From positions 1 to 64,000 of IMG/VR virus record IMGVR_UViG_3300025168_000049: a stretch of DNA of 64,000 bases; one strand, 5' to 3'. Below the pieces are notes generated by a model. It searched no databases and had not been told where the DNA came from. It worked only from the letters and a program-made list of their open reading frames with translations. This stretch comes from a virus. The first letter of the stretch is position 1. Every line of letters starts with the position of its first letter. Positions 23,052 to 59,038 of the stretch are shown here, piece after piece. A program made the position numbers and the translations under genes.

Positions 23052-25780
23052 TGAATAGTGAAGGAGCTTTAAGTTCAGAAGAAGCATTAGCAATTATTAA
23101 GTCTTCAATGTCTGGAGAATTAGAAATTCCTGCGCACAAAGCTATAGAACAAACAGCTTTAAAACAACAGCAAGAATTAGTTGCGCAACAAGAAGAACAA
23201 GAACAGTCTCAACAAGGTCCAATGCATCAGATGCCTGATGGTAGCATGATGCCAGGCGAAACTCATGGTGAAGCCCCACCCCCAGCTTTAGGAAAACTAG
23301 TACCTACATATACGAAAACAGGAGATCTTGTTAATTCAGGGGATTCACTTACACAAGGATTTAGTAATGCAATTGGGACTCAGCGTGGTAATATAATTGG
23401 ACAACAAGGAGAATATGCTCACGGTGGTGAGCATGAAGCTCCAGAGTTAGATGATATTGATTCTATTACATATGAGGATGGAGGAATTTCACCACAAAAT
23501 CAAAAGACAGAGTCTGCTAAGATAGCACGTAATTATGTAAATGTTAAAGGACAGTTATATCCAAATGCAGTAGATGAAGATGGGTTAATAGAAGATAAAT
23601 CTAAATTTCCAGATGATAAGGCTTTTTCTATGTATAAGGAAGCTGTTTTAGAAACAGAAGGAGAAAGATTAACAGGATATTTACCTAATAATAAATTTTC
23701 AGGTGTAACTGTCGGCAGAGGTTTTGATATAGGACAGTTTAGTACAAGGCAGATTAAAACAATGTTTTCTGATGATAAGGTTTTAATGCACAAGTTGCTT
23801 CCATATGCAAATAAAAAGAAACCTGAACTAGACAAATCAAACATAAATGGTAAAAAACTAAAGATATCATCATCAGAATCTGAAAAAATAAATGAAACTT
23901 TATTTAATCAACAATGGTCTTCTATAAAAAGTTATACAAACGGTAAAGGAGCTACTGAAGATAATGTTAAAACATTAATGCAATTAAAACATTGGTCTGG
24001 AGCTTTAGGAAATACATCAGGAAATTTAGCTCCTAAAGGAGAAAATCATATTTGGAAAGAAATCCAAGATGGTGACTTTGATACACAAGAGTTATATAAT
24101 GCAGTTATGTTTACCCGTGAGGATTTAGGTGAAAAAACTAAAGAGAATGAATGGAAATATAATACATTAAAAAAACATCATACTAATTTAGGTAAACAAA
24201 TGAAAGAAGTGCATGGTGAAAATTGGGAAAGTGGATTAGCAGTAACACCGCCTCATCCAGGAGAGTTTCTGATGAATATGTATAAAATGCAATTAAAAAA
24301 TGGAGTATTAGATAGGCGAATAGAGCATAAATATAAAAGGTGGTTACATGAAGACTGGGATAAAGATGGTGATGGAATTCCTTTTAGTATAGACAAAAAT
24401 GATCATCAACATTTTGAAAGAAAATTTGCAGAAGGTGGGGTAAGAAAGTATCATAATGGAGGTGAAGGGCCAGGGCATCCTCATGAAGAGGAAGAAATAA
24501 AGCCTGACGGATATACAACTACCAAAAAGTATAATAGCGGCAGGGTTACAACACATTCAACTTTTAATGATGAAAGTAAAAGAAGTCAGGGATCCGGATA
24601 TGTTAGTGCAATACCGACAGATTCAGAAAATTATATATTAAATGCAGGAATGCTTCCTGAAGTAAATATAAAAGAAAAAGATCCTAGAAGTTGGGTAAAG
24701 AGAAACTACCAAAAGTATATAGCTCCAATAGGACATGGAGTATTAGATGTTGTAGGTATGATACCTGCAGCTGGAGAATTAGCTGATGGTATTAATGCAT
24801 TATGGTATACTGCAGAAGGTAATTATGAGGATGCAGCTTTGTCAAGTGCAGCTATGATTCCATTTGCAGGATGGGCAGCAACTGCAGGTAAATGGGGAAA
24901 GAATACTATTAGAGCCATGGATAAAGTAACACCTGGAGGAGGAGGAATGTATCAACAATTAAGATATTTACAAGACGTAAATCCTAAACTCGCTGGAGAG
25001 TTAGGAATTAAAAATAAGAAGCAGATAAAAAAGATGCTTAAGAATGACCCTGCTGCGGCACAAAAAATAATTGATGATGCAAATGCAGGAAAAGTATTTG
25101 ATGGTGGTAAAAAGACAAAGTATGTAGAACCTACAGTTGATGACTTTGGTAAAAAAGTTAATACTGATGACTTGCGTAGTACGGGTGATGATATTATAGA
25201 TAATAGACTACTTGATACGCAAATTGATCCTGACTTAACATTTAGAAAATCTGCTTTTGATAGAACACATCCTAACAGAGGTGGACATACATTTAGCGAT
25301 ATAGCAGGAGAATATACTTGGTTAGATAACGCATCTAAAATTGATAATCATGTTATTGCACCATTTAATCCAAAGTTTAATAAAGCTGGAGATATGACTT
25401 CTTTTGATTTACAGAAACTTGATGATTATGTGCCTTTTAGTTCACATAAAATGGAATTCCCTAATCTAAATAATACCGGTTTTAAAAATGATTTAACTCA
25501 TACAATGAAAAATTTACAAAATAACGGGTTCCATCATATGGATATGCATGGTGGTAATATACTAGTAAAATCAGATAATTTTGGTAAGATACTAGATTAT
25601 AAAATTATTGATCCAGTAGGATACACTCATGACTTCCAAAAGTCAGAAATGTTTTTAAGGAATAATCCAGAATTTCAAGATTGGGATGGAATACTTAAGA
25701 ATAGAAGTAGAGTTAATGATGATATATTTAGAATCCAAAATGAGATGAAACATGGTGGACTAAGAAGAAAACGAAAATAA
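23051..25780 (+). CDS. Modular putative virion effector: pesticin-type muramidase + PT-TG + protein-kinase-like domain
   Basis: EG...GYLP....SGVTVGRGFDIGQ; LDVVGMIP..GE.ADGINALWY..EG; HMDMHGGNILV...IIDP. Confidence 0.7.
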   Translation: MNSEGALSSEEALAIIKSSMSGELEIPAHKAIEQTALKQQQELVAQQEEQEQSQQGPMHQMPDGSMMPGETHGEAPPPALGKLVPTYTKTGDLVNSGDSLTQGFSNAIGTQRGNIIGQQGEYAHGGEHEAPELDDIDSITYEDGGISPQNQKTESAKIARNYVNVKGQLYPNAVDEDGLIEDKSKFPDDKAFSMYKEAVLETEGERLTGYLPNNKFSGVTVGRGFDIGQFSTRQIKTMFSDDKVLMHKLLPYANKKKPELDKSNINGKKLKISSSESEKINETLFNQQWSSIKSYTNGKGATEDNVKTLMQLKHWSGALGNTSGNLAPKGENHIWKEIQDGDFDTQELYNAVMFTREDLGEKTKENEWKYNTLKKHHTNLGKQMKEVHGENWESGLAVTPPHPGEFLMNMYKMQLKNGVLDRRIEHKYKRWLHEDWDKDGDGIPFSIDKNDHQHFERKFAEGGVRKYHNGGEGPGHPHEEEEIKPDGYTTTKKYNSGRVTTHSTFNDESKRSQGSGYVSAIPTDSENYILNAGMLPEVNIKEKDPRSWVKRNYQKYIAPIGHGVLDVVGMIPAAGELADGINALWYTAEGNYEDAALSSAAMIPFAGWAATAGKWGKNTIRAMDKVTPGGGGMYQQLRYLQDVNPKLAGELGIKNKKQIKKMLKNDPAAAQKIIDDANAGKVFDGGKKTKYVEPTVDDFGKKVNTDDLRSTGDDIIDNRLLDTQIDPDLTFRKSAFDRTHPNRGGHTFSDIAGEYTWLDNASKIDNHVIAPFNPKFNKAGDMTSFDLQKLDDYVPFSSHKMEFPNLNNTGFKNDLTHTMKNLQNNGFHHMDMHGGNILVKSDNFGKILDYKIIDPVGYTHDFQKSEMFLRNNPEFQDWDGILKNRSRVNDDIFRIQNEMKHGGLRRKRK

Positions 25781-25851
25781 GTGTTATATAATAATAGAAA
25801 CCTTAAAACAACAGAAGAGTATAAAAAATATGAATATATTTCGTACTTTTG
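25780..25851 (+). promoter_or_regulatory. Putative late promoter of the scaffold/capsid operon
   Basis: AGTGTTATATAATAA at 25780; TACTTTTG at 25844. Confidence 0.55.
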
Positions 25852-25879
25852 TAACCTAAACCAATAAATATATATAGAC

Positions 25880-27001
25880 ATGAATGAACCAAATGAAAAA
25901 ATCCAGCTGGATGACATCACCTTTGATGATGTTATTGGCGGTGACGGAGTCGAGACTGTAGACACTCCCAAAGAAGAATTAGAAGTAGTAGAAAATGAAC
26001 TTGAGGAATTAGAATTAGAAGATCCTAAAGACGAAGATCTTGAGGATGATGATGAGTACGAGGATGAAGATGAAGATGACAATGATGAATATGAAGATGA
26101 GGAAGAAGATGAAGATGAATATGAATCAGAGTATGACGATAGTGATGACCCTGCTGAGCAACCAACTGTTATTAATGAAATTTTAGACTCATTAGGATAT
26201 GATGCTAATGATTCTTACGATGATACTGCAGAAGGTTTAACTAAGATGACTAAAGATATAGCATCTAAAATGGCAGACGATAGAATTGATGATGTGTTAG
26301 CATCTTTTCCTTTAGTAAAACAACATTTAGAATATGTTTTACATGGAGGAGAATCTAAGGAGTTTATGTCAGCACATGATCCTGCAATAGATTATGGTGC
26401 ATTTACAGTAGGAGAAGAAGATTCTAGAAGTCAACGAATGATTTTATCTAATTACTTAAAGTTAAAAGGGCATGATAAAGAATTTTCTGACGAACTATTA
26501 GAAGATTATGAAGATAGTGGTAAATTATATCAGAAATCTTTAGCAGCGCAAAAGGCTTTAACAAGCTATCAAGAAAAAGAAAGAGAGCAAATGATTACGA
26601 ATCAACGAGCTAGTCAAGAAAAAAGCAACCAAAGCCAAAGAGAATTCTGGAATGGTATTGCAGATAAGATAGATGATTCTGATGAATTTGCTGGAGTTAG
26701 GTTAGCAGAGAGTGAGAAAAATGGTTTTTTTAATTACCTTTCTCAACCTGTTGATAAGAATGGAAGTACACAAAGAGATGTAGACCACCGTGATGCTGAT
26801 ATGGATGTTAAATTAGCTATTGATTATCTAATGTATAAAGGATTTGATTTAGAGAGTTTAGTAAACACAAGAGCTAAAACGGCAGGTGCTAGATCCCTGA
26901 GAGATAAGATATCTAGAAGTGAGGCTAGTGTTAAAAGTGCACGTAAAGCTTCACGAAGAAACAAGAAGTTCGATATAGATGATTTAGATCTTAGTATTTA
27001 A
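25880..27001 (+). CDS. Acidic capsid assembly/scaffold-like protein
   Basis: Very D/E-rich N-terminus, helical remainder, immediately upstream of major capsid gene. Confidence 0.65.
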   Translation: MNEPNEKIQLDDITFDDVIGGDGVETVDTPKEELEVVENELEELELEDPKDEDLEDDDEYEDEDEDDNDEYEDEEEDEDEYESEYDDSDDPAEQPTVINEILDSLGYDANDSYDDTAEGLTKMTKDIASKMADDRIDDVLASFPLVKQHLEYVLHGGESKEFMSAHDPAIDYGAFTVGEEDSRSQRMILSNYLKLKGHDKEFSDELLEDYEDSGKLYQKSLAAQKALTSYQEKEREQMITNQRASQEKSNQSQREFWNGIADKIDDSDEFAGVRLAESEKNGFFNYLSQPVDKNGSTQRDVDHRDADMDVKLAIDYLMYKGFDLESLVNTRAKTAGARSLRDKISRSEASVKSARKASRRNKKFDIDDLDLSI

Positions 27002-27085
27002 GAAGGCAATTTATACTTGCAATAGTATTTTTACTATAATTACCCCCTGAACTGGGAGATAGGGGCCCATTAAAATTTTAATGAA

Positions 27086-28534: not shown

Positions 28535-28570
28535 AGGAAGGCATTAATTTGCGTCTATATATATTGGTTT

Positions 28571-28614
28571 TTAATTAAGGTTGTGGGGGAGCAATCCCTC
28601 ACGGCTTTGATTAA
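28571..28614 (+). terminator. Long GCAA-tetraloop hairpin after capsid gene (terminator or stabiliser)
   Basis: ~20-bp stem with G-U pairs on plus strand; no clear U-tract. Confidence 0.6.
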
Positions 28615-28675
28615 ATAATTATACGGAGAGTTATACTTTACATCCACTTAATTTAAACTTTAAAAGTACTATATT

Positions 28676-30634: not shown

Positions 30635-30658
30635 TTATTAATATAAAAATTAGAAAAG

Positions 30659-31597: not shown

Positions 31598-31613
31598 TAG
31601 TATTACTAATAAC

Positions 31614-31649: not shown

Positions 31650-31663
31650 AAAAAATTTAATAT

Positions 31664-45691: not shown

Positions 45692-46399
45692 ATGACATTA
45701 AATGAAATAGCATACAACTTATTAAACCTAATTAGAGGAGGTAGATCTAATCACGATGAACATCTATCTTTAGATCAGATTAAGTTTAATATTAAGCATT
45801 ATCGAGCAATGTTCTTGCGTAGAGATTTTGCTAGAAATGGATTAACAACAAGACATGTAGAACAAGATTTAGGATGTTTAGAAGTAGCTCCTGTAGACGC
45901 TTCTAGGTGTTGTAACTTGCCTATAGGATGTACAATTTATAAAACAAAATTGGAAGTTCCTAAAACTGTTAGATTTAATTTCAGAGATGCTATTACATAT
46001 ATTGGTGATGTAACTGGTTTAGGAACTATTCCTATGGTGGAGCCACATATTGTGCAATGGTTACCATATGATAAATATACAAATAAAAAAATGAAAGCAT
46101 TTATGATAGATAATTTTATATATATACATAATGCTAAAGGTTTAGAGTACATAAATGTAAGAGGAGTCTTTGAAGACCCCGAAGATTTAAGGCTTTATAA
46201 TTGTGGTACTGACGTCTGTTATGACGATAGTGCTACAAATTTTCCAATACCTATGGATATGATTCAAGCAATCAATTCAGGTATTATATCTGGTGAATTA
46301 GGACTGCTTACTGGTTCATTTAGTGATTTAGAAAATGATAGGATGCAAGACGATAGAACTGTTAAAGGTATTGCACCTCAACAAAATAAGCAACAATAA
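45692..46399 (+). CDS. Tail ring protein (crAss-like)
   Basis: TLNEIAY, RA..L, VRGVFEDP, FPIP motifs; synteny. Confidence 0.6.
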   Translation: MTLNEIAYNLLNLIRGGRSNHDEHLSLDQIKFNIKHYRAMFLRRDFARNGLTTRHVEQDLGCLEVAPVDASRCCNLPIGCTIYKTKLEVPKTVRFNFRDAITYIGDVTGLGTIPMVEPHIVQWLPYDKYTNKKMKAFMIDNFIYIHNAKGLEYINVRGVFEDPEDLRLYNCGTDVCYDDSATNFPIPMDMIQAINSGIISGELGLLTGSFSDLENDRMQDDRTVKGIAPQQNKQQ

Positions 46400-46427: not shown

Positions 46428-47213
46428 ATGGCAAAAGATGAATTTTACGGGAAAGGCTCTAAGCGCATAAGTGGCGACTTTTTGGAACCTAGTACCCCTG
46501 TTTTGTTTGAGGATGGCGGCGCCTCTGAAGATGAGACACGTAAGGAAATGCGAAGACGACAAAGAGAGGAGCGCAAAACCGCAAGGAAAAAAAGAAGATC
46601 TACTAGGAAAACAAGACGTCTAACAAAGAAAATAAACAGACGTAAGGAAAAAACTAAAAAGATTGAAGGTAAGTTAGAAACTCATACTGAGAAGACTCTA
46701 ACAAAGAAAAAAGAGTATGCTCCAACTACAGAAGGAGATAAAAATACTCCACCTAAATCGGCTACAGAAACACCAGATGTTAAAAAGGATAAAAAGAATT
46801 CTAAAAGTATAGATAATATGTCTTTTAGTGAGGCTTACAGAACTCAAAGAGATGCTAATAAAAAAGCAGGTATAAAGCATTACGGAGATGATTCAGGGCA
46901 TTTTACTTGGAGAGGTAAGGAATATAGTACGGAGTCAAAATCTGAGCAAGATAAAAGAAAAGGAAAAACTAAGAAAAAAGTAGTTAAAAAGAAAGAAGAG
47001 ACACCGGTAGTAAAAGAAACAACTCCTAAGAAGAAACAAACTGTAAATCCAAAGCATGATCAAGACGGTAATGGTGTTCCAGATTTAGTTCAAAAACCTA
47101 AGACTCATGATGCAGATAACGACGGAATTCCAGATTTGATCCAAAGACGTGAGACAACAAAGATCAAGAAGAAGAAAGGTGGAATAAAGTACAAAAGAGG
47201 AGGAAGAAGATAG
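46428..47213 (+). CDS. Lys/Arg-rich putative internal virion protein
   Basis: Basic composition, SFSEAY...FTWRGKEYST, two DxDxxG.PD motifs, terminal GG motifs. Confidence 0.55.
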   Translation: MAKDEFYGKGSKRISGDFLEPSTPVLFEDGGASEDETRKEMRRRQREERKTARKKRRSTRKTRRLTKKINRRKEKTKKIEGKLETHTEKTLTKKKEYAPTTEGDKNTPPKSATETPDVKKDKKNSKSIDNMSFSEAYRTQRDANKKAGIKHYGDDSGHFTWRGKEYSTESKSEQDKRKGKTKKKVVKKKEETPVVKETTPKKKQTVNPKHDQDGNGVPDLVQKPKTHDADNDGIPDLIQRRETTKIKKKKGGIKYKRGGRR

Positions 47214-47696
47214 ATGTTACATACTTTAAAGGCAATCTATGACGATTATCAGATAAAGTATGACGATAGCATTGATGCAAAAACTTTTAGAGACATTTGC
47301 TCTGACTATAATATGATAGTCATGAGCAATGTCTTAGAAGGTAAAACATTCAATATGGGCTATAACTTATCTTCTATATATATAGTTAGAGTAAGAAGAG
47401 ATCCTAGGACTCCAAGAATAGATTGGGGAGAGAGTAATAAGTATAGAGATGAACTTATTAAAAAAGGTTTGCCTTTGTATGATAATATTACAGAGAAAGG
47501 TAGAAAATGGTATATATATTATACAGATGATTTTTATTGTAAATACCATTGGAACAAAGGTAAATGTAAGATCCCAAATAAGTCTGTTTATAGATTTGAT
47601 GCTACACGAGGGGTTAAAGGAAATAAGGGAAAATTAATAACTTTGTTGCGTAAAGATGATTTAGCGTATTTAAAGTTTAAAAAATATAAATTATGA
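47214..47696 (+). CDS. crAss-like conserved protein (IHF-like) preceding tail tube gene
   Basis: Synteny; basic; IDW.ES, Y.F...RG. Confidence 0.5.
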   Translation: MLHTLKAIYDDYQIKYDDSIDAKTFRDICSDYNMIVMSNVLEGKTFNMGYNLSSIYIVRVRRDPRTPRIDWGESNKYRDELIKKGLPLYDNITEKGRKWYIYYTDDFYCKYHWNKGKCKIPNKSVYRFDATRGVKGNKGKLITLLRKDDLAYLKFKKYKL

Positions 47697-48571
47697 TTTA
47701 TAAAACTATATCTAGCAAGACAATTATTAGAAAGGTTTTTAGAGATTTAAAACCTAATGATGATAATTGGATAGATGATGCTATTGAGTGGATAGGAGAG
47801 GCATTAGAGCATATAGGTTCTGCACCACAACTGTGTACTAAACAATGTGTCTTAACTGTAAAAGATCATAAAGTATGTTTACCTGCTGACCTATATTATA
47901 TCAATCAAGTCGCAGTTAATAATACAGTATCTCCTACTACATCTGAAGAGTTAGATACTTTATTAACTCAAGTTAAAACATTATCTGCATCTGTTGTTGC
48001 AGCTACGGCTGCAGGGCAAGATTATAGTGATACAGGAAAAGTCCTTAATGAAATAAATGCTAGAATTGTTGTTTTAGAAAATGTTTTCTTTTCTGATGAA
48101 CATAAACTAAGAGCATTACAATATGGTGCAAGTACATTTCATAAAAGCATGCATTGTACAGGATGTGTAAACGAATTATCAGAGTATAAGGATAGTTATA
48201 TAGTAGATTGTGGGTATATTAAAACCTCATTTCAAACAGGAAAAATCTGTATAAGTTATATGGCTTTTCCTCTAGATGAAGATTGCTTTCCATTAGTACC
48301 AGATGATATAAGTTTTAAAGAAGCAATGTTTTGGTATATATTTAAAAAATTATTATTATCAGGTTATGATAAACCTACTAAGATAGACTATGCTTTTGCA
48401 GAAGAGAGATGGATGAATTATTGTACACAAGCTAGAAATGCAGCTAACTATCCAGATATTGCAAAGTATGAATCGTTTATGAATCAATGGGTAAGATTAG
48501 TTCCAAATATAAATAGACACTCGACGTTATTTGAAGATTTAAATGACAGAGAACAATTAGATAGAGGATAA
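47693..48571 (+). CDS. Tail tubular/ring protein
   Basis: EWIGEAL..IG, LP.DL, I.TSF..G.I.ISY, P.VPD; directly before the tail stabilisation gene. Confidence 0.75.
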   Translation: MIYKTISSKTIIRKVFRDLKPNDDNWIDDAIEWIGEALEHIGSAPQLCTKQCVLTVKDHKVCLPADLYYINQVAVNNTVSPTTSEELDTLLTQVKTLSASVVAATAAGQDYSDTGKVLNEINARIVVLENVFFSDEHKLRALQYGASTFHKSMHCTGCVNELSEYKDSYIVDCGYIKTSFQTGKICISYMAFPLDEDCFPLVPDDISFKEAMFWYIFKKLLLSGYDKPTKIDYAFAEERWMNYCTQARNAANYPDIAKYESFMNQWVRLVPNINRHSTLFEDLNDREQLDRG

Positions 48572-51500
48572 TGGCCAATAAAAGATTTTTAAAAGGATTA
48601 TTCAAAGATACTAGTCATCAAGACCAGCCTAAAGATTCTTGGAGATATGCAAAAAATGCTACTATAAATAATATAGAAGGCTCTATTTCTAACGAATCTG
48701 GTACTACTGCACACGGGCATCTTGGAACAAATTTAACCTGGGGTGCTCAAGAAGATAGAATCTTGGGAACTGTAGAAGTTGATAATGATAGAGTAGTTAT
48801 ATTTACTAAGAATCAACTTAACTTAAGAAGCGAGATTGGTATATGGGATCCTAATACAAGCGTAGGTAATCCATACTCAGCTTTATATAATCCTAACATA
48901 ACTAGTTATGTAACACACGATTTAAATTTTCAGTTTACCAATTTAATAGAAGGAACTTATAAGATTGATGCTAAAGGAGATTTAGTTGTTTATTTTACAG
49001 ATGATTTAAATCCACCTAGGGCAATTAACATAGACCGTCAAATGCGAGGGATAGCATTATCTAATATTACTTGGTTATATAACATTAATCCTGCTAGTTC
49101 ACATTCAAAACATTTAGAATTATTAAATTTATTTCCAGCATCTGGTCCTGTTCCTCATATTTATCTTTCTGACCAGTGGTGGTTTCCTAAACCATATCAG
49201 ACGTCTGTTGTTGAAGGGGGTGGATTAAAAACAGCAGTATACTATTTAGCTTTAGCTTATGTAGATGAAGACTTAGTTGCGACTAATTTTTTAACTGTTT
49301 CTAATCCTGTTTCAATTGTAGATGAGTATGATCACACTAGGCCTACTAGTAAAAAAGACGGTGCTAAAGAGGGTACTCAAACATCTAAAGCTATATCATG
49401 GAGAGTTAGTAATCTGAATACAGATTATAAGTTTATGCGACCTGTAGTTGTTAGGCGTATGGGAGATTCGACTGAGGCTTTTAAATTAAATGATATACAA
49501 ATAAATCCTAATACTTCAAATCCTCCATTTCAAACTGTAGTATTTAGTGGTATAGAAGGTAGTAGCGGACTAGCTATTGAAAAAGTTATTATAGATACTA
49601 CATCTTATGATACTGCAAAAACTATTGATCAGTTAGATGGTATTTTATATTTAGGAAATACAACTAGTAATAAGGATTTAGGATATCAAAAATATGCTAA
49701 TGCAATTAAAACATTTTCTGTTGTTAGGGATATACCAAAATTTGATGAGCATTGGATGACCATGGATAGTCTAACTACAGGGAATGCTTTTTTCCCAGTT
49801 GATGATGGTAATTATGTAGATGATTCTAAATCATATAGACATCATCCAAATATTGTAGATCATAAAGGATATCAAAGAGATGAGGCTTATGCCTTTTATA
49901 TTGCATTTATTATGAATGATGGTAGTATGTCTTATGCATATCATATACCTGGACGAGAAAAAAATATATCTACTGACCCAGCTTTTCATACTGAAGGAGA
50001 TGCTGTTTCTTCTGCATCAGTAGGGAATACTCAAATTTTTTCAGATTTAGCGGACTTAAGTAAAGGTCACGCTCAAAACTTTCATTTCTTTGATTACAGT
50101 CAATACGCAGGAAATAGAAATATGAACTTTTGGGAAAATGCTACAGAGACTTATCCAGATACAGATAACTATGAAGTGTGGGATGAAAATGGTTATACAG
50201 GAACTGACATTAAAAATGAAAGGGTTCGTCACCACCATTTTCCTGGTAATGATAATGACAACAGATCCTCAATTAGTGATGACACATGCACGTCGCAGGA
50301 GTCTGATGGTGTAGGATCAAATAACACACCTTGGAATGGTACTGTTGAATTTAGACATAATGATGATGGGTGTGAAATGCATTGGAATGAAGGATCTTGG
50401 AGATATGCAAATATGGGTAATTATGTAAATATATCTGATCCTGATGGTACTAACGCTCAGATGTTACAGGCTCTATTTAGAAGCAAATCTGATACAGGAG
50501 GATTTGGTTCAGGATGTAATAACACTGGTGGTACTTGGAATGGTAATTATATAGTAGCAGATCAAAAAATGACAGTAAGAAGTTGGGCTATGATTAATCA
50601 TAGAAGACTAAGTAATGGTGGTTCTGCTCCACTTACTACTACTAAGTATAGTACTAATTCTGTTGCTAGCCCTGTAGCTGAAGGGGCAGCAGGTACTAGT
50701 CCAGGATGTCCTGCAACTTCCTGTGATTCAATAGGTGATTATGGGGGTTGTGGTGGTAGTGGGACGCTTGATTATACAGCTATGTCTTTACCAGCTACTG
50801 TTTTAGAGCCAGGCGAGTGGATACGAATGAGAAATTGTGGAGATGGTTGGTGTAATGTAGGTGGTCAATCAGGAGGAACGGATTGTAGATTTAGACAGGC
50901 TAGAGGAAGTAGTGAGCAAATAGATGCGTGTGACGCAGGGTGTTCTAGTCCTAGCAGTGCTCCATGGAGTTGCAATGATTACCAGTTTATTAGATGGGAA
51001 ATTGTATCAGCTAATTCTGTTGCGCCTGGCTTTGTAAAATATGATGCAAAGATATCACATACTGTTAGAAGACTAGGATTTACTCTAGAGGATATAAAGG
51101 TACCTAAATCTATAGCAGATAAAGTTCAAGGATTTAGAATTTATTATGCTAAGCGTGGGCAATCTAATAAAACAATTATTGGACAAGATTCAATAATACC
51201 TATGACACGAAAACTTGTTCAAATGGGTATCTGCCTAGAAACAGGTGGCACAGCAGAAGCATATCAAGTTATGGGTACGTTGCAAAACTTCCCTGAAACA
51301 TTCTGGCAATGCGAGTCTATGGCTTATGCATCGTGGCATCCAGGATATCCTATATATACTTATGGAATATACCAAAACTCTACTACACTAGCTACTGGAG
51401 AAGCTGCATATAAAAACTTTACTTTTCACGATTTTAATTTGTTGAGAACAAAAAATAGTTTAGCAGGTGCAACACATATTAAACCACAATGGAGAGTTAG

Positions 51501-54255
51501 AAATTTAGTATGGAATGGTCCTACAGTTAATCAAGATAAACGAATGAATACTAGATTAACTAGCGCTCCAGGAGCAGGAACAGATCCTATTGAAATAAGA
51601 GAAGAATGGGGATGGGAAACAGACTTTAATTGCTATCCAAGAGATGTAGCCTCTTCTATTCATGCAGGTGCAGACTATGCTAATTATAGTAGATATGGAG
51701 GTAGCTACCTTCCTCCAAGAGTACTAGGACAAAAAGCTAAATCGTACTTAATGGGCGATACTATTTTTAGAGGAGCATCTTTAGGTTTTGGAGGTAAAGT
51801 ATTTAATGAGTTTGGTGAAAGTTGTATGATCTTTTCTTTAATGGATAGACACGAGTTTCGTGCAGTTGATTTAACTAACAGGCCTACATCCTCAGCTGGT
51901 TGGAATTCAGGATACGCAGCACCTAATAACTCTGCTGCGGTTGAAGGATTTGGAAATATTGAAAGAGTTAATCCTGGAGACAATGGTCCAATACTTGTAA
52001 ACCCTTTACCTTGGGGATCTTATGATGGAACTGGTGGATATAATCAATTATCACATGACAGTAGCGGATCTAGAAGTCAAAGTATGATAGTTAATTTACA
52101 TGCTTTTAAAACTGATGTTTATAAATCTATTGACAGTAATAAATTAGTATGGACAGGATTTGAAGTATTGGGACAGCAGTTTAAGAATTTCATTTTCTGG
52201 GATGATGCTAATCACCCTGAAGCACCAACAGGTACTATTGCAGGAGATCCTATGGTTGCTACTATAAAAGAATTGTTACCACCATATACTCCAGTTAGTA
52301 ATACAGCAAATTACTCTGTAGCTGATTTACAGTCTACGTTATATCAAGGAACTTCAAACCATATAAAGTCTGGTATATATGGAGGAGACACCTATATATG
52401 CAGATATGGTAAAGCATTAGCTGTTAAACCTAGTAACATAGATGAGAGTTCATTACCTAAAAGATCTATCCATTATCAAATAGTAGAAAGTTGTGATAAT
52501 ATTAACTTTAGACATACTGACTCTGATAAAAATTTATACTATCCAGGATCTATAGCAAAAGAAATTATACGATATGTTGGTAGTGAAGATGGAGATTTTA
52601 CACATTTTGATAACATGAGGTATAACGATAACTATTCTGCAGTTAATGACATCAGACCAGCTTTTCCATTACCTTTAGAAGAAAACAATCAAACAGATTT
52701 TCCAACTAGAACGCATAGAAGTGCTAAGTCAGATAATACTAGTTTGATAGATAATTATAGAATCTTTTTAGGAAATCAATTTAAAGACCTTCCTAGAGAT
52801 AAAGGAGATTTATGGAAGCTATCTACTTTTAATAATTTATTATACTTCCACATGGAAGATACTTTATATGTAACTAAAGGTAAACAAAAGATGCAGCTCT
52901 CTGGTGGATCAGATGCTTTTGTAGGAAGTGGAGATATTTTTGAACAGGCTCCAGAAGAGATTGTGCACACTAAAGATGGATATGGAGGAACTCAATCAAT
53001 TAGAGCAGCACTTGTTACACGTAGTGGGTATTTCTTTGTAGATGCTGCCGCTCGTAAAGTGTTCTTAATGAAGGAAAATTTAGTCGAGTTGAATGATGTA
53101 GGTATGGAACAATGGTTTAAAGATAATATTAAATTTGCTCTAGAAGACTTTGGTTTAAGTACTGTTGCTGATAATCCTCTTATGGGATTTGGATTTCATT
53201 CTGTATATGATCCTAAATTTAAAAGAATATTATTAACTAAAAGAGAGTATGTACCTACACAACTTTTTATAGATGGGTTCAATTCGATTGCCTCTATCCC
53301 TCCAAGTTATGGAACAGTAAGATTTAACGTTAATTCACAAATGTTTGAGCAGTTTGCAGCTTGTGCCTGCGGTACTTTTCCAAGTTGTTACGATTGTTGG
53401 GCTACTATAGAGTGGGAGAATGAATCTTATTTCTACAAAGGTGGTTGGACAATATCTTATTTTCCTGAATTAAATATCTGGGTTAGCTTCCATGATTATG
53501 TACCTTATCATTATTTTAATACTACTTTTAATTTTTATTCAATAACAGATCAGTATCCAAATTTAATTGGTGGTCTTGGTGGTCTTGTTACTACTTTGGG
53601 AAGCTCTGCTATATGGAAACATCACAGCGGTTTAAAAGGATTATACTACCAAGAAAATGATATAGGAACTATACCTAACTGGGCAGATAATATAACTATA
53701 TCTCCTTTTGAGATTGAGTATATAGAAAATGAATTAAGAGAAGCTGATGGATTATATTCCAGTATAACATATAATGCAGAAGTCTGGAATGACACTGCAA
53801 CAGATCTAAATATACAAGGAGTTAATGTACTAGAACATGGATTTACTAGTTTCTTTGTATACAATACACATCAAATATCTGGGACTGAAACATCAAGTCC
53901 ATTAGAATATTTGATAAATACAAGGCGTGTAGGTACTGATTGGAAGATAAATCAATTTAGAGACTTAGCAGCAATAGGTGTTTCAACTGCAGCATACTAT
54001 ACTGCTACCGGGGTCAATGTAACTGGAGGAACAAATGTTGGAACTGTAACAACAAGTGCTATAACTCCTATGTTTGTAGTAGACGGTATGAGTGAACTAC
54101 CAAACGCAAATTATATAAATTTAAACAAAATATGGCAAGAACAGAAGAAATTTATAGACAAATGGTTAGGAATTCGTTTAATATATGATAATATAACAAA
54201 TAATTCCGTACATTTGTACACTAGTTCTGTGGCTGTAAGAAAATTCTATAGATAA
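48571..54255 (+). CDS. Tail stabilisation/muzzle protein (P22 gp10-like position) with Cys-rich insertion
   Basis: 1894 aa; YFTD..NPPR.IN, LYLGN, YQRDE.Y.F.I, GGDTYI, WT.SY....W.SFHDY motifs typical of crAss-like tails. Confidence 0.8.
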   Translation: MANKRFLKGLFKDTSHQDQPKDSWRYAKNATINNIEGSISNESGTTAHGHLGTNLTWGAQEDRILGTVEVDNDRVVIFTKNQLNLRSEIGIWDPNTSVGNPYSALYNPNITSYVTHDLNFQFTNLIEGTYKIDAKGDLVVYFTDDLNPPRAINIDRQMRGIALSNITWLYNINPASSHSKHLELLNLFPASGPVPHIYLSDQWWFPKPYQTSVVEGGGLKTAVYYLALAYVDEDLVATNFLTVSNPVSIVDEYDHTRPTSKKDGAKEGTQTSKAISWRVSNLNTDYKFMRPVVVRRMGDSTEAFKLNDIQINPNTSNPPFQTVVFSGIEGSSGLAIEKVIIDTTSYDTAKTIDQLDGILYLGNTTSNKDLGYQKYANAIKTFSVVRDIPKFDEHWMTMDSLTTGNAFFPVDDGNYVDDSKSYRHHPNIVDHKGYQRDEAYAFYIAFIMNDGSMSYAYHIPGREKNISTDPAFHTEGDAVSSASVGNTQIFSDLADLSKGHAQNFHFFDYSQYAGNRNMNFWENATETYPDTDNYEVWDENGYTGTDIKNERVRHHHFPGNDNDNRSSISDDTCTSQESDGVGSNNTPWNGTVEFRHNDDGCEMHWNEGSWRYANMGNYVNISDPDGTNAQMLQALFRSKSDTGGFGSGCNNTGGTWNGNYIVADQKMTVRSWAMINHRRLSNGGSAPLTTTKYSTNSVASPVAEGAAGTSPGCPATSCDSIGDYGGCGGSGTLDYTAMSLPATVLEPGEWIRMRNCGDGWCNVGGQSGGTDCRFRQARGSSEQIDACDAGCSSPSSAPWSCNDYQFIRWEIVSANSVAPGFVKYDAKISHTVRRLGFTLEDIKVPKSIADKVQGFRIYYAKRGQSNKTIIGQDSIIPMTRKLVQMGICLETGGTAEAYQVMGTLQNFPETFWQCESMAYASWHPGYPIYTYGIYQNSTTLATGEAAYKNFTFHDFNLLRTKNSLAGATHIKPQWRVRNLVWNGPTVNQDKRMNTRLTSAPGAGTDPIEIREEWGWETDFNCYPRDVASSIHAGADYANYSRYGGSYLPPRVLGQKAKSYLMGDTIFRGASLGFGGKVFNEFGESCMIFSLMDRHEFRAVDLTNRPTSSAGWNSGYAAPNNSAAVEGFGNIERVNPGDNGPILVNPLPWGSYDGTGGYNQLSHDSSGSRSQSMIVNLHAFKTDVYKSIDSNKLVWTGFEVLGQQFKNFIFWDDANHPEAPTGTIAGDPMVATIKELLPPYTPVSNTANYSVADLQSTLYQGTSNHIKSGIYGGDTYICRYGKALAVKPSNIDESSLPKRSIHYQIVESCDNINFRHTDSDKNLYYPGSIAKEIIRYVGSEDGDFTHFDNMRYNDNYSAVNDIRPAFPLPLEENNQTDFPTRTHRSAKSDNTSLIDNYRIFLGNQFKDLPRDKGDLWKLSTFNNLLYFHMEDTLYVTKGKQKMQLSGGSDAFVGSGDIFEQAPEEIVHTKDGYGGTQSIRAALVTRSGYFFVDAAARKVFLMKENLVELNDVGMEQWFKDNIKFALEDFGLSTVADNPLMGFGFHSVYDPKFKRILLTKREYVPTQLFIDGFNSIASIPPSYGTVRFNVNSQMFEQFAACACGTFPSCYDCWATIEWENESYFYKGGWTISYFPELNIWVSFHDYVPYHYFNTTFNFYSITDQYPNLIGGLGGLVTTLGSSAIWKHHSGLKGLYYQENDIGTIPNWADNITISPFEIEYIENELREADGLYSSITYNAEVWNDTATDLNIQGVNVLEHGFTSFFVYNTHQISGTETSSPLEYLINTRRVGTDWKINQFRDLAAIGVSTAAYYTATGVNVTGGTNVGTVTTSAITPMFVVDGMSELPNANYINLNKIWQEQKKFIDKWLGIRLIYDNITNNSVHLYTSSVAVRKFYR

Positions 54256-54259
54256 AATT

Positions 54260-55630
54260 ATGACAAAAATAAAAAAATTAAAGACCGCTGTTGCGTATAA
54301 AAGTAAGTATGCCCTAGGAGGCAAGTTAGAGAAACCAAAAATGAAAAAGAGCAAACGTAAGTTTGTGGCAGGTGGATCTCAATACGATCAAAACACTATT
54401 AGTGCTTTTCAGAACCCTAACTATACAGGGAATATAGTAGCTCAAGGTACTCAAGAATCTGCAGATGCGGCTTCAGAACATTTTGATTCAGAGGCTGAAA
54501 AACTAAAAACTTCATCAGAGACAATGGTTAACGAGATGAAAAATGAAGATGAGCAAACTAAACAAAGACTTATACAAGAGGATGCAGCCAACAAACAAAA
54601 ACAAAATGCAGTTGAAAGCACTGCACAAACGGCTGCACAAACTATAACTGAAGGATATAAAAAGTTTGCTCCTAACAGTGCTACTGCAAAAGAAACAAAA
54701 GGAGATGGTATTGGTGGACTAGTTGGTTCTATTGGACAGGCTAGAAATCAATGGAAAGCTATAGGAGATGCTAAAAAGGCTGCTAAATTTGCAAAAGGTT
54801 TTAATGAAACTAAAACTGCCTTTGATGTTGGACAAAGATTATCAATGGGAGAGGATGCATATAAGCTGTCTCAAAGCATGAAGAATGTATCAAATATGAA
54901 AACTACTCTAGATCAAACTAAAGTAGGAATGAATATGTTTGATAAAGGTAGTAAAGGTTTAGATATGTTAAATAAAGGTAAGGATGCTGGTGATGTATTT
55001 AAAAAAGGAACAGAACTCGCTAGTACAATGGATAAAACAACGGGACTTTTAAAACTAGGAGAAAAAACACAAAAATTAAGCACGATGAGTAAAGTTGGTA
55101 CAGCTGCTAAAACAGTAGGGGCTGGTGTCAAATCTTTTGCTACTTCGGCTTCAGGGCTAGGTCTTATAGCAAATTATGCAGGAAAAGGAATAAGCAAGTT
55201 ATCTGATGATGGGGATCCTACTAAATCTAACTTTGGAGAATATGCTGGAGCTGCTTTATCTACTGCAGGATCTTGGGCAGGGACAGGAGCAATGATTGGA
55301 TCAGTAATACCTGGTATTGGAAATGCTGTTGGAGGAGCTGTTGGGGCAGTTGCAGGAGCTCTCTATGGTGTAGGAAAAACATTTTTTGGTACTAGAAAAG
55401 CTAAACGTGCTAAGGCAAAAGCAGATCAGCAAAGAGCTGAGAAAGTGGGTGCGTATAATGAAAAATTAAAAGGAAGATTTGGACATGCTGCACAATCAGC
55501 TAGAGCTATGGAGATTAAATCAAAAACAACCTCTGGACAAGATTTAGGGTGGGATACAACAAGATCTAGATATGGAGGAATTAGAAAAGAATATGGGGGG
55601 CAACGACAAATACCAGCATACGCTGCATAA
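54260..55630 (+). CDS. Internal virion (ejection/cargo) protein with glycine zipper
   Basis: GA.IGS.IPGIG.AVG.AVG.V.G hydrophobic Gly zipper; follows tail genes. Confidence 0.65.
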   Translation: MTKIKKLKTAVAYKSKYALGGKLEKPKMKKSKRKFVAGGSQYDQNTISAFQNPNYTGNIVAQGTQESADAASEHFDSEAEKLKTSSETMVNEMKNEDEQTKQRLIQEDAANKQKQNAVESTAQTAAQTITEGYKKFAPNSATAKETKGDGIGGLVGSIGQARNQWKAIGDAKKAAKFAKGFNETKTAFDVGQRLSMGEDAYKLSQSMKNVSNMKTTLDQTKVGMNMFDKGSKGLDMLNKGKDAGDVFKKGTELASTMDKTTGLLKLGEKTQKLSTMSKVGTAAKTVGAGVKSFATSASGLGLIANYAGKGISKLSDDGDPTKSNFGEYAGAALSTAGSWAGTGAMIGSVIPGIGNAVGGAVGAVAGALYGVGKTFFGTRKAKRAKAKADQQRAEKVGAYNEKLKGRFGHAAQSARAMEIKSKTTSGQDLGWDTTRSRYGGIRKEYGGQRQIPAYAA

Positions 55631-55642
55631 AATACTACGACT

Positions 55643-58600
55643 ATGAATAGAAGATTTATAAATAAACTAAGAAATAAATATGCTACAGGAGGAGAACTAA
55701 TGACTAACTCTATGGATCCAGCTCCAATGGGACAACTAGAAGAATCTAGCACAGTTCCTTATGGGTCAGTACCTACTTATGAAGCACAAGGAAATAATGT
55801 TCCTAAACCACCATCTACAACAATGGCACCAGTTACGGGTGGAACAGATCCTAAAGTGTTAAAAGCAGAGAGAGATAAGTTAGCTCTTATGGATGAAGCA
55901 ACACTTCGTGCATATTATACAGAGATGTATACTAATCAAGTAACACCTGTAATACCTTTTGGTCAAACTAGATTTAGTAATGATCCAGGATATGGCCAAG
56001 GGAGTACTAGATTTAACTATTCCCACACACAAGATAAGAGTGCATTTAATAATATTTATACTTTGACAGATTATGATCCGACAAATGAAGGAGAGCAAGA
56101 TGTTAATGTAAGGAATATAGATGCTGCAAATTATATATATGGTAATACAACTGATGGGTTAATAGCTACTACTACTAAATTTGAGGAAGACAGAACGACA
56201 CAGAACGCTGCTAATGCTTTATTAGACGGAGATGAAAAAGAAGCTGACCGTATTACTACTAATCAGGTTAACAGGACTATAATTAATGATCTAATAAATC
56301 AGAAAGGCTCGTATTACGAGGAAGGTTGGACTATAGGAGATGGAGGTAAGCCTGTACCACCTGTAAATCAAGGTCAGTTTAACAGAGACCTTATGCGTGA
56401 AGAAGCTGAATCTTGGGAGAAAGAAAAAAATCGTCTTATAGAGGCAGGTATAATGGGAGACGGATCACAGCCTGTAGTTATAGAAGACGATGCTAAGTTT
56501 AATGTAGCGGCACTACCAATGGTTGTAGCATCAGGTGTATTTGCCGCAGGGCAGTGGGGTCTGAATCCTGCAGCTGACGCCCTGTTTTTAGAATCTTTAG
56601 TTTTGGCAGGAATATCAACTATAACTTATAAAGAGTTGCAGGGGATGTATAAAAATTATCAAGAAGGTGCGACAATGCAGAGGACTATAGATGCTCATGG
56701 TAAACAAATGGAAATTGATTTTGGGGCATCAGCTTCTACTGCTACTTCTGCAGCAGGAAGTCATCCTAATGGACCTGAATATGACCCAAAGAAAGATCCG
56801 GATAAAAGTAGAGCTGCTAAATTTGCTGAAGCTGTAAAAAAGTGGGGAAAGAATGCTGGTAAGCTAGTTTGGAATAAATATACTAGGAAATTTGGGATTT
56901 ATGTTATAGTTGGGGGTACAGGAAGGTTTATATATGAAGTAATTAAACATGGCGGAATAGGTAATACACCTGATGGTCAAAATAGAAATGATAAAAAGAA
57001 AGAGAAAACTCTAGATAATGATGAATGGATAGCAAATCCAGCGGACCCATCTGGATGGACATTAATGAATCCTGCAACAGGTGATATATACGATAAACGT
57101 ACTGGGAACCATTTCACTAAAGATGGAGAACCTATAAAGAATAGAGGACAGAACTATGAATTTGGCGGGTCTAGAAATACTCTAGATAGAATGCGTCAAT
57201 ACTCAAGAGGAGGCGAGGCTTTACCAGGAGGTATGATGGAATCAATACCAGGTTCTGATGCTGTAAAATTTAATGGTCAAACTCATGAAGAAGGAGGAAT
57301 AGAATTAGATTCTAGAACAGAAGTAGAAGACGGGGAAACTATGGATAAAGTTAATATGAGTAAGGGAGGTCCTTCAGACTATTTCTTTTCTAAAAAATTA
57401 GGATTCGCTGATAAGCATGAGAGACTACTAGCTAATGGAGGTAGTCAAACTGATATCAATTACTTAGCTAAAATGCAAGAAAAAGCTGCTGGGAGAAATC
57501 CAAGTAAAATTGCCGCAGAATATGGGGGAGTTAGAAAATTTGAAGAGGGAGGAGCAAATAGAAAAACAGATAGACAATATGCATACGGAGAAGATTATAC
57601 AGAGAATGTAGGAGGAGCACATGGAGAGGCAGGATACACAGGACTGGGATCTGACGGATCTTATACTCCAACTGATCCAGGAGAAGAAGGATACGCTAAT
57701 ACACAATCTTCAATAGGAAAAAAAGGAAATAACTATTGGGGAGATAAACATATTATGTCTGATGAAGGACGTAAAGATTTCTACAATAGAAATAAAAATA
57801 TTTTAAATGGTATGGATATTAATAGTTGGGAAGATTACGACCCAGCTAAACATGCAGGAGATTTCCAAAAAGCATTTAACACAGATTTAAAAGAACGTTA
57901 TAATAAAGACGAGAACTTACGAAACAGTTTAAAAAGTAGAGGGATTAATAGTGTTGAGGACTTTACACAACAGGCTGGATTTCATAATAAAGGTCATAAA
58001 TCTAAACGATTAGATAATGCTCATGGAGAATACACATGGAGTAGAACCTCTGCATATAATGAGCCAGAAGATAAAGAAATAATCCCACCAACAGACGACG
58101 GAGGAGGGGACGAGGAAATTACTACAACAGATTTAAAGGTTCAAAATCAAAAAAAAGGCTTTAATTTGTTAGGGGCCGCACAATTAATACCTGCAGCTAT
58201 GGCATTTATGGATAAACCTGATTACATGGAATCTCCTGATTTAGTTGCTCCTGGTATTGTTGTTCCTGAACGAATATCTAAAACACATTTAGAAAGAGTA
58301 AATTATAATAATCAAAGAGATAAAGAAGATAGAAACTACCAGGGACTAAGACAAGATATCAATACAAGTGGTATAGGAGGAGGTAGTGCGATGTCTAACA
58401 GATTAGCGGCATATGCAATGTCAGAAGCAAACCAAAGAAAAATTGATGCTGATGAATCTAATGTAAATGTACAAATTGGGAATCAAGAAGGTACTATGGA
58501 CCAACAAAGAAAAGGAGAAAATGCTAGTAACATGTTATCAGCTAGTACTACTAATGCTAGTAACTACTTAGATGCAGACAAAACTAATGCTAAGAATGCT

Positions 58601-59038
58601 ATGTATGTAGATGAATTTAATTCTGCAGCAGATGCAGCTACATTTGATAGAAAATTAGATGCTGTACAATCTGGTGTACAAGGTGTAGCAGGTATGTGGA
58701 ATGACCAACAAAATAGAAATACACAAGAGCGTATAGCTTTTGCTGAAGCAGGTAATAGAGGAACCTATGAGAGAGAAAGAGCTAAGTGGGACTCTAAAAA
58801 TGAGAGTGAAAGATTAACCGCTTCTAATAGTAGTACTTCAGAAAGCAGTACTTCAACTACTAAACGTACTTTTGTAACAGGAGCAGATGGCACTAAATAT
58901 TGGAGTGACGGAACTTCAGAGAAACCTGGCAGCGCAGAAACAGGCGGGCCAAGGTATAATACAGAGTTTAAAAAACGTTTAGCTCGTAAAGGAGGTGTTC
59001 ATGAAGGTTCTGCTTCGTGGAAAAGAATGTTTGGATAA
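55643..59038 (+). CDS. Internal virion cargo protein (mosaic)
   Basis: G.THEEGGI...EVEDGE...FS.KLG core, hydrophobic segments, Q/N-rich helical C-terminus. Confidence 0.65.
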   Translation: MNRRFINKLRNKYATGGELMTNSMDPAPMGQLEESSTVPYGSVPTYEAQGNNVPKPPSTTMAPVTGGTDPKVLKAERDKLALMDEATLRAYYTEMYTNQVTPVIPFGQTRFSNDPGYGQGSTRFNYSHTQDKSAFNNIYTLTDYDPTNEGEQDVNVRNIDAANYIYGNTTDGLIATTTKFEEDRTTQNAANALLDGDEKEADRITTNQVNRTIINDLINQKGSYYEEGWTIGDGGKPVPPVNQGQFNRDLMREEAESWEKEKNRLIEAGIMGDGSQPVVIEDDAKFNVAALPMVVASGVFAAGQWGLNPAADALFLESLVLAGISTITYKELQGMYKNYQEGATMQRTIDAHGKQMEIDFGASASTATSAAGSHPNGPEYDPKKDPDKSRAAKFAEAVKKWGKNAGKLVWNKYTRKFGIYVIVGGTGRFIYEVIKHGGIGNTPDGQNRNDKKKEKTLDNDEWIANPADPSGWTLMNPATGDIYDKRTGNHFTKDGEPIKNRGQNYEFGGSRNTLDRMRQYSRGGEALPGGMMESIPGSDAVKFNGQTHEEGGIELDSRTEVEDGETMDKVNMSKGGPSDYFFSKKLGFADKHERLLANGGSQTDINYLAKMQEKAAGRNPSKIAAEYGGVRKFEEGGANRKTDRQYAYGEDYTENVGGAHGEAGYTGLGSDGSYTPTDPGEEGYANTQSSIGKKGNNYWGDKHIMSDEGRKDFYNRNKNILNGMDINSWEDYDPAKHAGDFQKAFNTDLKERYNKDENLRNSLKSRGINSVEDFTQQAGFHNKGHKSKRLDNAHGEYTWSRTSAYNEPEDKEIIPPTDDGGGDEEITTTDLKVQNQKKGFNLLGAAQLIPAAMAFMDKPDYMESPDLVAPGIVVPERISKTHLERVNYNNQRDKEDRNYQGLRQDINTSGIGGGSAMSNRLAAYAMSEANQRKIDADESNVNVQIGNQEGTMDQQRKGENASNMLSASTTNASNYLDADKTNAKNAMYVDEFNSAADAATFDRKLDAVQSGVQGVAGMWNDQQNRNTQERIAFAEAGNRGTYERERAKWDSKNESERLTASNSSTSESSTSTTKRTFVTGADGTKYWSDGTSEKPGSAETGGPRYNTEFKKRLARKGGVHEGSASWKRMFG

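Follow-up and report, generated by a model that had tools for sequence, protein, structure and literature searches.

A short peptide motif, basic residues followed by [YF]-x-x-[GA]-G, is a conserved joint and terminus peptide of cargo proteins, most likely particle-borne, in a marine clade of crAss-like phages. We analysed the motif in 64,000 nucleotides of viral DNA (positions 1 to 64,000 of IMG/VR record IMGVR_UViG_3300025168_000049; hereafter the window), the first 64 kb of a contig that is complete and circular, measures 86.7 kb and has ends overlapping by 127 bp. The terminase, portal and major capsid protein (MCP) matched crass PHROGs, the MCP being ~33% identical to those of gut crassviruses, and Pfam recognised ring protein 2, ring protein 1 and the muzzle. 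The source is a distant crAss-like phage. Homologues of the studied proteins came from marine metagenomes.

The motif is carried by four proteins of the window, of 909, 261, 456 and 1131 aa, whose features are collected in Table 1. An earlier reading of the DNA (the original prediction) had taken these for internal virion proteins that share a signal for capsid loading or proteolytic release. Its observation was confirmed and its interpretation partly supported. We tentatively favour the view that the motif is an uncut joint, serving as both flexible hinge and docking handle of cargo proteins.

Occurrence of the motif in the genome

All the motif peptides that had been listed from the sequence were present where they had been placed. 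In its core form, the motif is often doubled with a fixed period of eight residues (GG-x-[KR]-K-[YF]-x-x-GG). The four proteins contain 12 copies of [YF]xxGG against 1.85 expected from shuffles, a count that none of 2000 shuffles reached, and the remaining window proteins contain 6 against 6.4 expected, which is chance. Each of the four proteins also has a single copy of the paired form, GG-x(2-4)-[YF]-x(0-2)-GG, which is absent from all other proteins (4 observed, 0.67 expected); the doubled peptides are GGVRKYHNGG, GGIKYKRGG, GGIRKEYGG and GGVRKFEEGG. The frequent pairing seen by the original prediction is thus borne out, and the GGVRK[YF]xxGG peptide that it reported in two proteins is present in both, with the paired form extending to all four. 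A scan of the 75 open reading frames (ORFs) of the whole genome revealed no further carrier with the same sequence context. The sole other ORF with multiple matches encodes a 2701-aa fibre-like protein, in which FGPGG and YGYGG lie in Gly-run contexts and are of a different kind. Since the four proteins were chosen after the fact, the within-genome counts are only suggestive, and conservation in relatives decides; a shuffle statistic on the top four proteins was not extreme by itself (14 observed; mean 7.2, maximum 16).

The flank upstream of the motif has a net charge of +1.6, compared with +0.1 in random windows, and the downstream flank is close to 0. The basic flanks that had been proposed are therefore found mainly on the N-terminal side, and YAHGG, YEDGG and FEDGG lie in an acidic context instead.

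We also considered that the motif might be a recombination seam at the level of DNA, that is, a conserved nucleotide stretch that promotes module exchange. Module shuffling does occur at the motif. However, the 14 copies in the window differ in their Gly-Gly codons (GGT GGT, GGA GGA, GGC GGC, GGT GGG and others) and in their flank codons, and share no nucleotide word. As synonymous Gly codons and flanks vary, selection acts on the peptide and not on the DNA. We rejected the seam on account of this codon variation and regard it as highly improbable.

Conservation of the motif in related loci

A scan of IMG/VR for close relatives using the 1131-aa protein alone gave no match. An alignment-guided scan succeeded and yielded 71 loci, of which 70 entered the analysis together with flanks of up to 10 kb either way; their ORFs were classed by BLAST to the window proteins. 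Two cargo families were enriched in the motif: the C1-core family, represented by the 1131-aa protein, had 183 copies against 43.6 expected, and the 456-aa family had 29 against 7.9, for a combined 212 against ~52. Among unassigned ORFs, 74 copies were observed and 30.9 expected. By contrast, the counts were 93 against 83 for the 67 muzzle homologues, 41 against 34 for the giant 2090-aa family, 6 against 14 for the 895-aa family and 0 against 5.7 for ring1/ring2/p160. A comparison of cargo with other proteins had been put forward as a check on the original prediction; it came out in favour of the motif, with muzzle, ring and giant proteins at or below chance.

The placement of the motif was equally restricted. 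In the C1-core and 456-aa families, 60% of the proteins have [YF]xx[GA]G within the first 35 residues and 73% have GG within the last 25. Neither feature was found in the muzzle (0/67) or the ring/p160 proteins (0/106), and the respective values were 0/34 and 1/34 (3%) in the 895-aa family and 0/21 and 3/21 (14%) in the giant 2090-aa family.

The logo of the motif reads GG-x-[KR]-K-[Y 83%, F 17%]-Q/x-x-G-G, with G at −5 in 41% and at −4 in 31% of sites. In the numbering that puts the aromatic residue at −5, Lys or Arg stands at −6 to −8. The commonest GG-GG spacing is 8, and AG can replace GG in relatives. Homologues of three of the four proteins (1131-aa, 909-aa and 456-aa) retain the motif at matching places. 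Typically, K-Y-x-x-G-G appears at residues 5-25 after a basic leader at the N-terminus, copies of the motif stand on both sides of the conserved core domain, and the C-terminus consists of ...RYGG and a short tail. The sequence past GG is conserved as well, as in the tail NRLQMP[KR]YA and the leader M[FY]RKKFIDKLRxKY. Bacterial proteins that share the modules, such as PT-TG toxins, do not have the motif; its density is high in this marine clade of crAss-like phages. In searches of the literature on crAss-like phages, we found neither the motif nor any processing of cargo described. Overall, these data demonstrate that the motif pattern is real, family-wide and specific to the cargo type.

The 1131-aa and 456-aa proteins as a split cargo protein C1

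The 1131-aa protein has a conserved block (residues ~523-625) with invariant G, H, D, E, Y, F and S positions, which AlphaFold2 (AF2) modelled with a predicted local confidence (pLDDT) above 90. The AF2 model of residues 486-652 was compared with 48,161 PDB chains. The top match was 7qog_M at residues 426-546 of the crAss001 cargo protein C1 (gp45), whose compact domain at residues 425-552 binds the portal wing, with a Z score of 7.6, a root-mean-square deviation of 2.2 Å over 78 aligned residues and 31% identity; the next match had a Z score of 4.2. A hidden Markov model (HMM) of the 1131-aa family also matched the C-terminal region of gp45 (residues 679-808, E 1.7e-4). Pairwise BLASTP between the 1131-aa protein and gp45 was not significant, a profile of the whole C1 alignment found no match among PDB sequences, and tblastn of the portal-binding domain found none in GenBank phages. 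The core-domain HMM did not find gp45 and Foldseek against the PDB returned nothing below E 0.5, only the all-against-all structure search giving 7qog_M. By the match of its model to the portal-bound domain, the 1131-aa protein appears to be the core of a crAss001-type C1.

The 456-aa protein is probably the N-terminal part of C1, carried on a gene of its own. According to its family HMM, it corresponds to residues 116-179 of gp45, where a basic stretch comes after a Gly-rich membrane segment (E 8.6e-6 among 101 ORFs; next ORF 0.76). Throughout the family, the proteins have a basic leader with KYxxGG and end in ARYGGNRLQMPKYA. In the window, the muzzle gene, the 456-aa gene and the 1131-aa gene follow one another, an order conserved in the related loci examined; the 456-aa gene stands directly after the muzzle in most of the first 28 related loci listed, and 21 loci have a detectable homologue. 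The start of the 1131-aa gene at 55643 is real, as the leader is conserved in relatives.

Given the profile match of the 456-aa protein to gp45, C1 would be split into two genes here and in most related loci examined. In some relatives, C1 is fused in one gene, where ...AKYGGY-YQMGG-VQLPGG represents the end of the N-terminal part, the doubled motif and the portal-binding domain. This is the same point at which the split forms end and restart: their upstream gene ends in ...ARYGG-NRLQMP[KR]YA and the downstream gene starts with M[FY]RKKFIDKLRxKYQxGG. Extra modules often precede the portal-binding domain in split C1. The two halves each retain a copy of the joint along with a conserved tail or leader, which is consistent with a handle required on every chain. 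The same pattern also fits cleavage, since cutting after GG would give identical mature ends in the split and fused forms.

The likeness to crAss001 C1 (gp45; Bayfield et al. 2023, PMC10172136; PDB 7QOG chain M) thus comprises a gene placed after the muzzle, the fold of the portal-bound domain, a Gly-rich membrane segment with a basic stretch after it, and a C-terminal region related to that of gp45. The gp45 protein has motif copies of its own, FDTGG at 17-21, FAEGG at 260, FAYGG at 559 and the C-terminus EYTGGTKKAKGG, which are not described in the crAss001 structure paper (PMC10172136). It differs from the present system, where two genes (456 aa and 1131 aa) and extra modules are found and the motif is far denser and more regular.

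In the 1131-aa model, YSRGG closes a helix immediately ahead of the portal-binding domain and the doublet lies in a low-confidence stretch after it. The motifs had been described as lying at termini and domain borders of otherwise unrelated proteins. This holds generally but not for MSKGG (residues 572-576 of the 1131-aa protein), which lies inside the folded portal-binding domain with pLDDT >90.

The 909-aa and 261-aa proteins

The 909-aa protein is modular. Its lysozyme module was matched by Pfam Pesticin at residues 201-294 (E 1e-11) and its kinase matches are weak. The homologues differ from module to module, and in relatives each module is combined with other partners. The AF2 model is confident at residues 545-685 and 720-900, and pLDDT falls below 50 at 79-169 and 426-541, where the motifs lie. 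Helices at 449-461 and 890-901 end at GG, in the first GG of KFAEGGVRKYHNGG and the C-terminal MKHGG, respectively; relatives have FKHGG or FRRGG at the latter position. Blocks of homology begin or stop beside motifs. One such block, starting at residue 458/459, is shared with the proteins P0040 and P0041, in which a PT-TG block of the 909-aa type (60-64% identity) is fused to a C1-type portal-binding domain. This fusion supports the cargo status of the 909-aa protein.

The 909-aa gene shares the slot between the portal gene at 20676-23051 and the MCP gene with the gene of an acidic scaffold-like protein. In the gut crassvirus cr10_1 (NC_055875, L077 46035-47333), the portal-adjacent slot is taken by a 432-aa protein that combines a pair of PT-TG-like helices with a HEISH zincin motif and is annotated as a peptidase. 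From its content in cr10_1, the place taken here by the 909-aa protein holds variable effectors, which in some crassviruses include a peptidase.

The 261-aa protein may likewise be cargo. In relatives, the same slot mostly holds small proteins with 20-32% Lys+Arg, most of which have KKKMMYGG-type repeats. Residues 228-259 of the 261-aa protein resemble residues 437-471 of the 909-aa protein, both with DxDGDGIP and a doubled motif (E 0.075). Of the four proteins that the original prediction placed inside the virion, the 1131-aa, 456-aa and 909-aa proteins are accordingly of cargo type, as indicated by the C1 matches and by P0040 and P0041, but for the 261-aa protein this is only presumed.

Two further short motifs were seen in these proteins. 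DxDGDGIP, which resembles a calcium loop (Excalibur or thrombospondin type 3), precedes the doublet by ~12 residues in the 261-aa and 909-aa proteins (47040-47204 and 24359-24463); its counterpart in relatives is DYLDMDGDG. The motif GGF[LI]EPxxPx[LF][DE]D ends the small basic proteins upstream of p160 in loci L005, L007, L015, L022, L024 and L047, and its counterpart in the 261-aa protein stands at the N-terminus (DFLEPSTPVLFEDGG, 46428-46520), as if permuted.

Taken together, the motif sites lie in disordered linkers at the N-terminus, at the C-terminus and between modules that fold independently and are exchangeable. These modules include the membrane part and portal-binding domain assigned to C1, the lysozyme, PT-TG and the kinase-like domain. 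In three cases, an AF2 helix ends at or just before GG. The modules are exchanged among relatives, in line with the plug-in cargo that had been envisaged.

Table 1. Location of the four motif-bearing proteins, their motif sites and relevant neighbours in the window.
Feature	Position	Strand	Remarks
909-aa protein	23051-25780	+	N-terminal region, pesticin-like lysozyme, PT-TG helical block, kinase-like domain
YAHGG	23414-23428	+	Ahead of lysozyme module of 909-aa protein; AF2 pLDDT ~26, disordered; acidic context
YEDGG	23471-23485	+	As YAHGG
KFAEGGVRKYHNGG	24422-24463	+	Doubled joint between lysozyme and PT-TG modules
MKHGG and basic tail LRRKRK	25745-25780	+	C-terminus of 909-aa protein
373-aa scaffold-like protein	25880-27001	+	Between 909-aa gene and MCP gene; highly acidic, helical
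Ring protein 2	45692-46399		Recognised by Pfam
261-aa protein	46428-47213	+	Very basic; between ring-2 and p160/ring-1 genes
FEDGG	46506-46520	+	261-aa protein
KKKGGIKYKRGG	47169-47204	+	261-aa protein; followed by RR and stop
Ring protein 1	47693-48571		Recognised by Pfam
Muzzle protein	48571-54255	+	Pfam crAss_MUZ, E 3e-34; context and negative control, motif at chance
456-aa protein	54260-55630	+	Probable N-terminal part of C1, separately encoded
KYALGG	54305-54322	+	456-aa protein
KFVAGG	54359-54376	+	456-aa protein
Gly-rich hydrophobic segment and RKAKRAKAK	~55247-55414	+	456-aa protein
RYGGIRKEYGG	55568-55600	+	456-aa protein; followed by tail QRQIPAYAA
1131-aa protein	55643-59038	+	Probable C1 core
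MNRRFINKLRNKYATGG	55643-55693	+	Leader of 1131-aa protein
YEFGG	57155-57169	+	1131-aa protein
YSRGG	57200-57214	+	1131-aa protein
Portal-binding domain	57215-57517	+	1131-aa protein
EYGGVRKFEEGG	57518-57553	+	1131-aa protein, after portal-binding domain
RKGG	58985-58996	+	1131-aa protein, which also has a C-terminal helical region

Is the motif cut?

In the main alternative to an uncut joint, the motifs are cleavage sites: tagged precursors or polyproteins would be cut after Gly-Gly at head maturation or after injection, by a host protease or one of novel fold, so that basic leaders and tails are removed and modules freed. The location of the sites in disordered linkers at termini and module borders is compatible with this, as are the equal mature ends that a cut would produce from split and fused C1. 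The C-termini, which consist of GG and 2-12 mostly basic residues, are like precursors of GG-ended modifiers. There is also a precedent for a host protease in Prp, which acts on Staphylococcus phage 80alpha.

However, Pfam detected no peptidase family in nearly all ORFs of at least ~100 aa of the complete genome, and PHROGs added none. This extends to the whole genome the earlier statement that no matching protease was identified in the window. Specifically, Pfam found no C5, C63, C48 or C39 peptidase in the genome ORFs, nor any prohead protease of the S77, S78, U35 or ClpP-like families. Similarly, no peptidase family was found by Pfam in 48 diverse related C1-type cargo proteins, which have LysM, glucosaminidase, MORN and Gly-zipper modules instead.

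The sites themselves also argue against a cut. At the 212 sites in the cargo families, the residue after GG (P1') is Pro in 9.4%, against a background of 4.2% (2.3-fold); V, M and L are enriched and G, A and S depleted. The aromatic residue sits at P5 (logo −5), whereas adenain and ubiquitin-like sites have the corresponding residue at P4. Fixed eight-residue doublets would free octapeptides, and the leaders and tails to be removed are conserved in sequence.

Evidence from crAss001 was examined as well. The structure study modelled gp45 as one chain running from the tail barrel to the capsid via the portal, reported no processing and does not mention cleavage or a protease in its text (PMC10172136). 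For bands 1-10 of the crAss001 virion gel published in 2018, we also matched the matrix-assisted laser desorption/ionization peak lists (PMC6235969, supplementary file 14) to theoretical tryptic masses. By mass matching, bands 1-9 are explained by gp44, gp50+gp47, gp49+gp44, gp20, gp26+gp22, gp22+gp25, gp25 and gp23. The gp45 protein (90.8 kDa, ~12 copies) was in none of bands 1-10 (~58 to >300 kDa), although the 12-copy portal was detected at ~100 kDa. The absence counts in favour of cleavage, but it is negative evidence only, and the three smallest bands (11-13) were not covered. Semi-tryptic matches at GG were at noise level in bands 1-10.

In the same gel, the fingerprint of the gp44 muzzle (155 kDa) appeared in two bands >300 kDa and in part of the 150-kDa band, which suggests a multimer resistant to sodium dodecyl sulfate. 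We had at one point read F426-G427-G428 of gp45, inside the modelled chain, as proof of an uncut motif. This was withdrawn, as structural alignment identified it with the invariant LPGG of the fold and not with a joint.

On balance, we consider cleavage unlikely. The proteolytic release suggested by the original prediction runs counter to the lack of a peptidase family, the enrichment of Pro after GG, the conservation of the peptides past GG and the aromatic residue at P5.

An uncut joint as the favoured explanation

In the uncut-joint explanation, the basic-aromatic stretch would bind an acidic or repetitive partner during particle assembly. The Gly-Gly would let each module load, thread through portal and tail, and refold separately. 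In split C1, the extra conserved tail and leader may keep the two chains ordered although they are not covalently joined. That the doublets are fixed and the sequence past GG is conserved suggests that the motif is read as one complete unit.

The 373-aa scaffold-like protein is a candidate partner of the basic tags. It is 29% Asp+Glu, residues ~30-95 are nearly all D/E/Y, the C-terminus is basic and helical, and Pfam gave no peptidase match. In crAss001, gp31 occupies the same slot and, with a net charge of −41 over 389 aa, is among the most acidic proteins tallied. A basic upstream flank and an extremely acidic protein in the scaffold slot make electrostatic docking in procapsid assembly plausible.

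Alternatively, the motif could be a passive element with neither a specific partner nor a cut, a helix stop and flexible hinge with nearby aromatic and basic residues, under selection for module-wise unfolding and refolding and for charge balance with the packed DNA. Consistent with this, AF2 helices stop at GG or immediately ahead of it, the linkers lack order, Gly is abundant in the cargo proteins and GG-to-AG changes are tolerated. The motif is also unresolved in the crAss001 maps, where gp45 is resolved only at 214-245 and 425-552 (PMC10172136). A plain hinge, however, does not explain the invariant aromatic residue three residues ahead of GG, the fixed doublet or the strict placement (at most 35 residues from the N-terminus and 25 from the C-terminus). 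Nor does it explain recurrence in unrelated families while the multi-domain muzzle and giant virion proteins show no enrichment. We therefore hold a purely passive role to be rather improbable.

A two-step code, in which the tags dock effector modules on the acidic scaffold or portal and an unrecognised host or new-fold protease then cuts after Gly-Gly, seems equally doubtful. If it were true, a single short code would govern both the entry of any module into the crAss particle and its release for injection.

Several observations weigh against an uncut docking joint. The giant polymerase-block cargo proteins are packed without the motif, which makes it unlikely to be a universal packaging tag. 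In cultured relatives, namely the Flavobacterium phage FpV4 and cr10_1, the motif is sparse or degenerate, and it is weaker in crAss001 gp45. FAYGG at 559-563 of gp45 lies just outside the model, and the mature particle gives no sign of the motif being docked in an ordered, symmetric way. The absence of gp45 from the gel bands, though negative evidence, also counts here, and the missing Pfam peptidase is compatible with a host or novel protease. The acidic scaffold-like protein, the portal or ring interior and DNA are candidate partners only. Finally, the amphipathicity of the upstream segment is barely above random (0.314 versus 0.293, p 0.04). An amphipathic helix before GG was dropped as a main argument because of this marginal hydrophobic moment.

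Comparison with known systems

The capsid targeting sequence of phage T4 is a short N-terminal peptide common to unrelated internal proteins, which are packed in the head and injected. It attaches to the scaffolding core, and the phage prohead protease gp21 cuts it off at L/I-x-E. The present motif differs in that it is also internal and C-terminal and ends in Gly-Gly, and no prohead protease was found in the genome ORFs.

In adenain, African swine fever virus (ASFV) pS273R and C39 leader systems, Gly-Gly ends a short recognisable peptide in several virion or exported proteins. Adenain and ASFV-type sites are (M/I/L)-x-G-G|x with a hydrophobic residue at P4 and are served by a virus-encoded cysteine protease, C39 leaders have hydrophobic residues at −4/−7/−12, and the protease is encoded alongside. 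By contrast, in the motif described here the aromatic residue is at P5, Pro is frequent at P1' and the doublets are fixed; Pfam revealed no C5, C63 or C39 peptidase in the ORFs searched. Its sites are also internal and C-terminal, unlike the single N-terminal leader of C39 substrates.

In 80alpha, the host protease Prp cuts after Phe-Phe in a motif that is shared by capsid and scaffold proteins, is confined to the N-terminus and mimics ribosomal protein L27. The likeness is that one short motif occurs in several virion proteins and that the protease there is not phage-encoded; the present motif, however, has no link to any host substrate.

Polyvalent proteins are multi-module proteins delivered with DNA that combine lysozyme and other effector domains and show high mosaicism (Iyer et al. 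2017, PMC5512222). The 909-aa protein and its relatives resemble them in having at least two unrelated effector domains and mosaic architectures. Processing of polyvalent proteins was predicted to occur via embedded zincin or papain-like peptidases, and the words 'linker' and 'glycine' do not occur in that paper (PMC5512222). The four proteins studied here and the 48 related cargo proteins differ in having no embedded peptidase.

Neighbouring genes

Cys is nearly absent from the giant proteins encoded downstream of the 1131-aa gene, except at facing termini (window 59017-64000, genome 61708-80312). It occurs only at position 2089 of the 2090-aa protein, at 5 and 2471 of the 2472-aa protein, at 3 of the 1637-aa protein and at 876 of the 895-aa protein. 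All four Gly-Gly proteins have zero Cys. The GTG start of the 895-aa gene at 59017 is probably wrong, since relatives start with MANKYSKY..., which corresponds to Met12 (59050). With a start at 59050, the overlap with the 1131-aa gene is gone. Other phage-encoded proteins (window 15112-15411, 17732-18364 and 365-1219; genome 80672-81004) are a Cpn10 (GroES-like) protein, a 2OG-Fe(II) oxygenase, a spore-photoproduct-lyase-like radical SAM enzyme and a SET-domain protein.

Significance

Crassvirales are among the most abundant phages known, and the motif offers a way into the question of how they select, pack and inject internal proteins amounting to megadaltons. A review of ejection machinery states that structures of crassvirus ejection proteins are still needed (PMC13434306). 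The motif predicts where modules start and stop and flags new cargo genes in metagenomic contigs. It also provides a mutable target for the study of loading, ordering and release. If the motif is sufficient for loading, it could be used to pack foreign proteins into phage particles.

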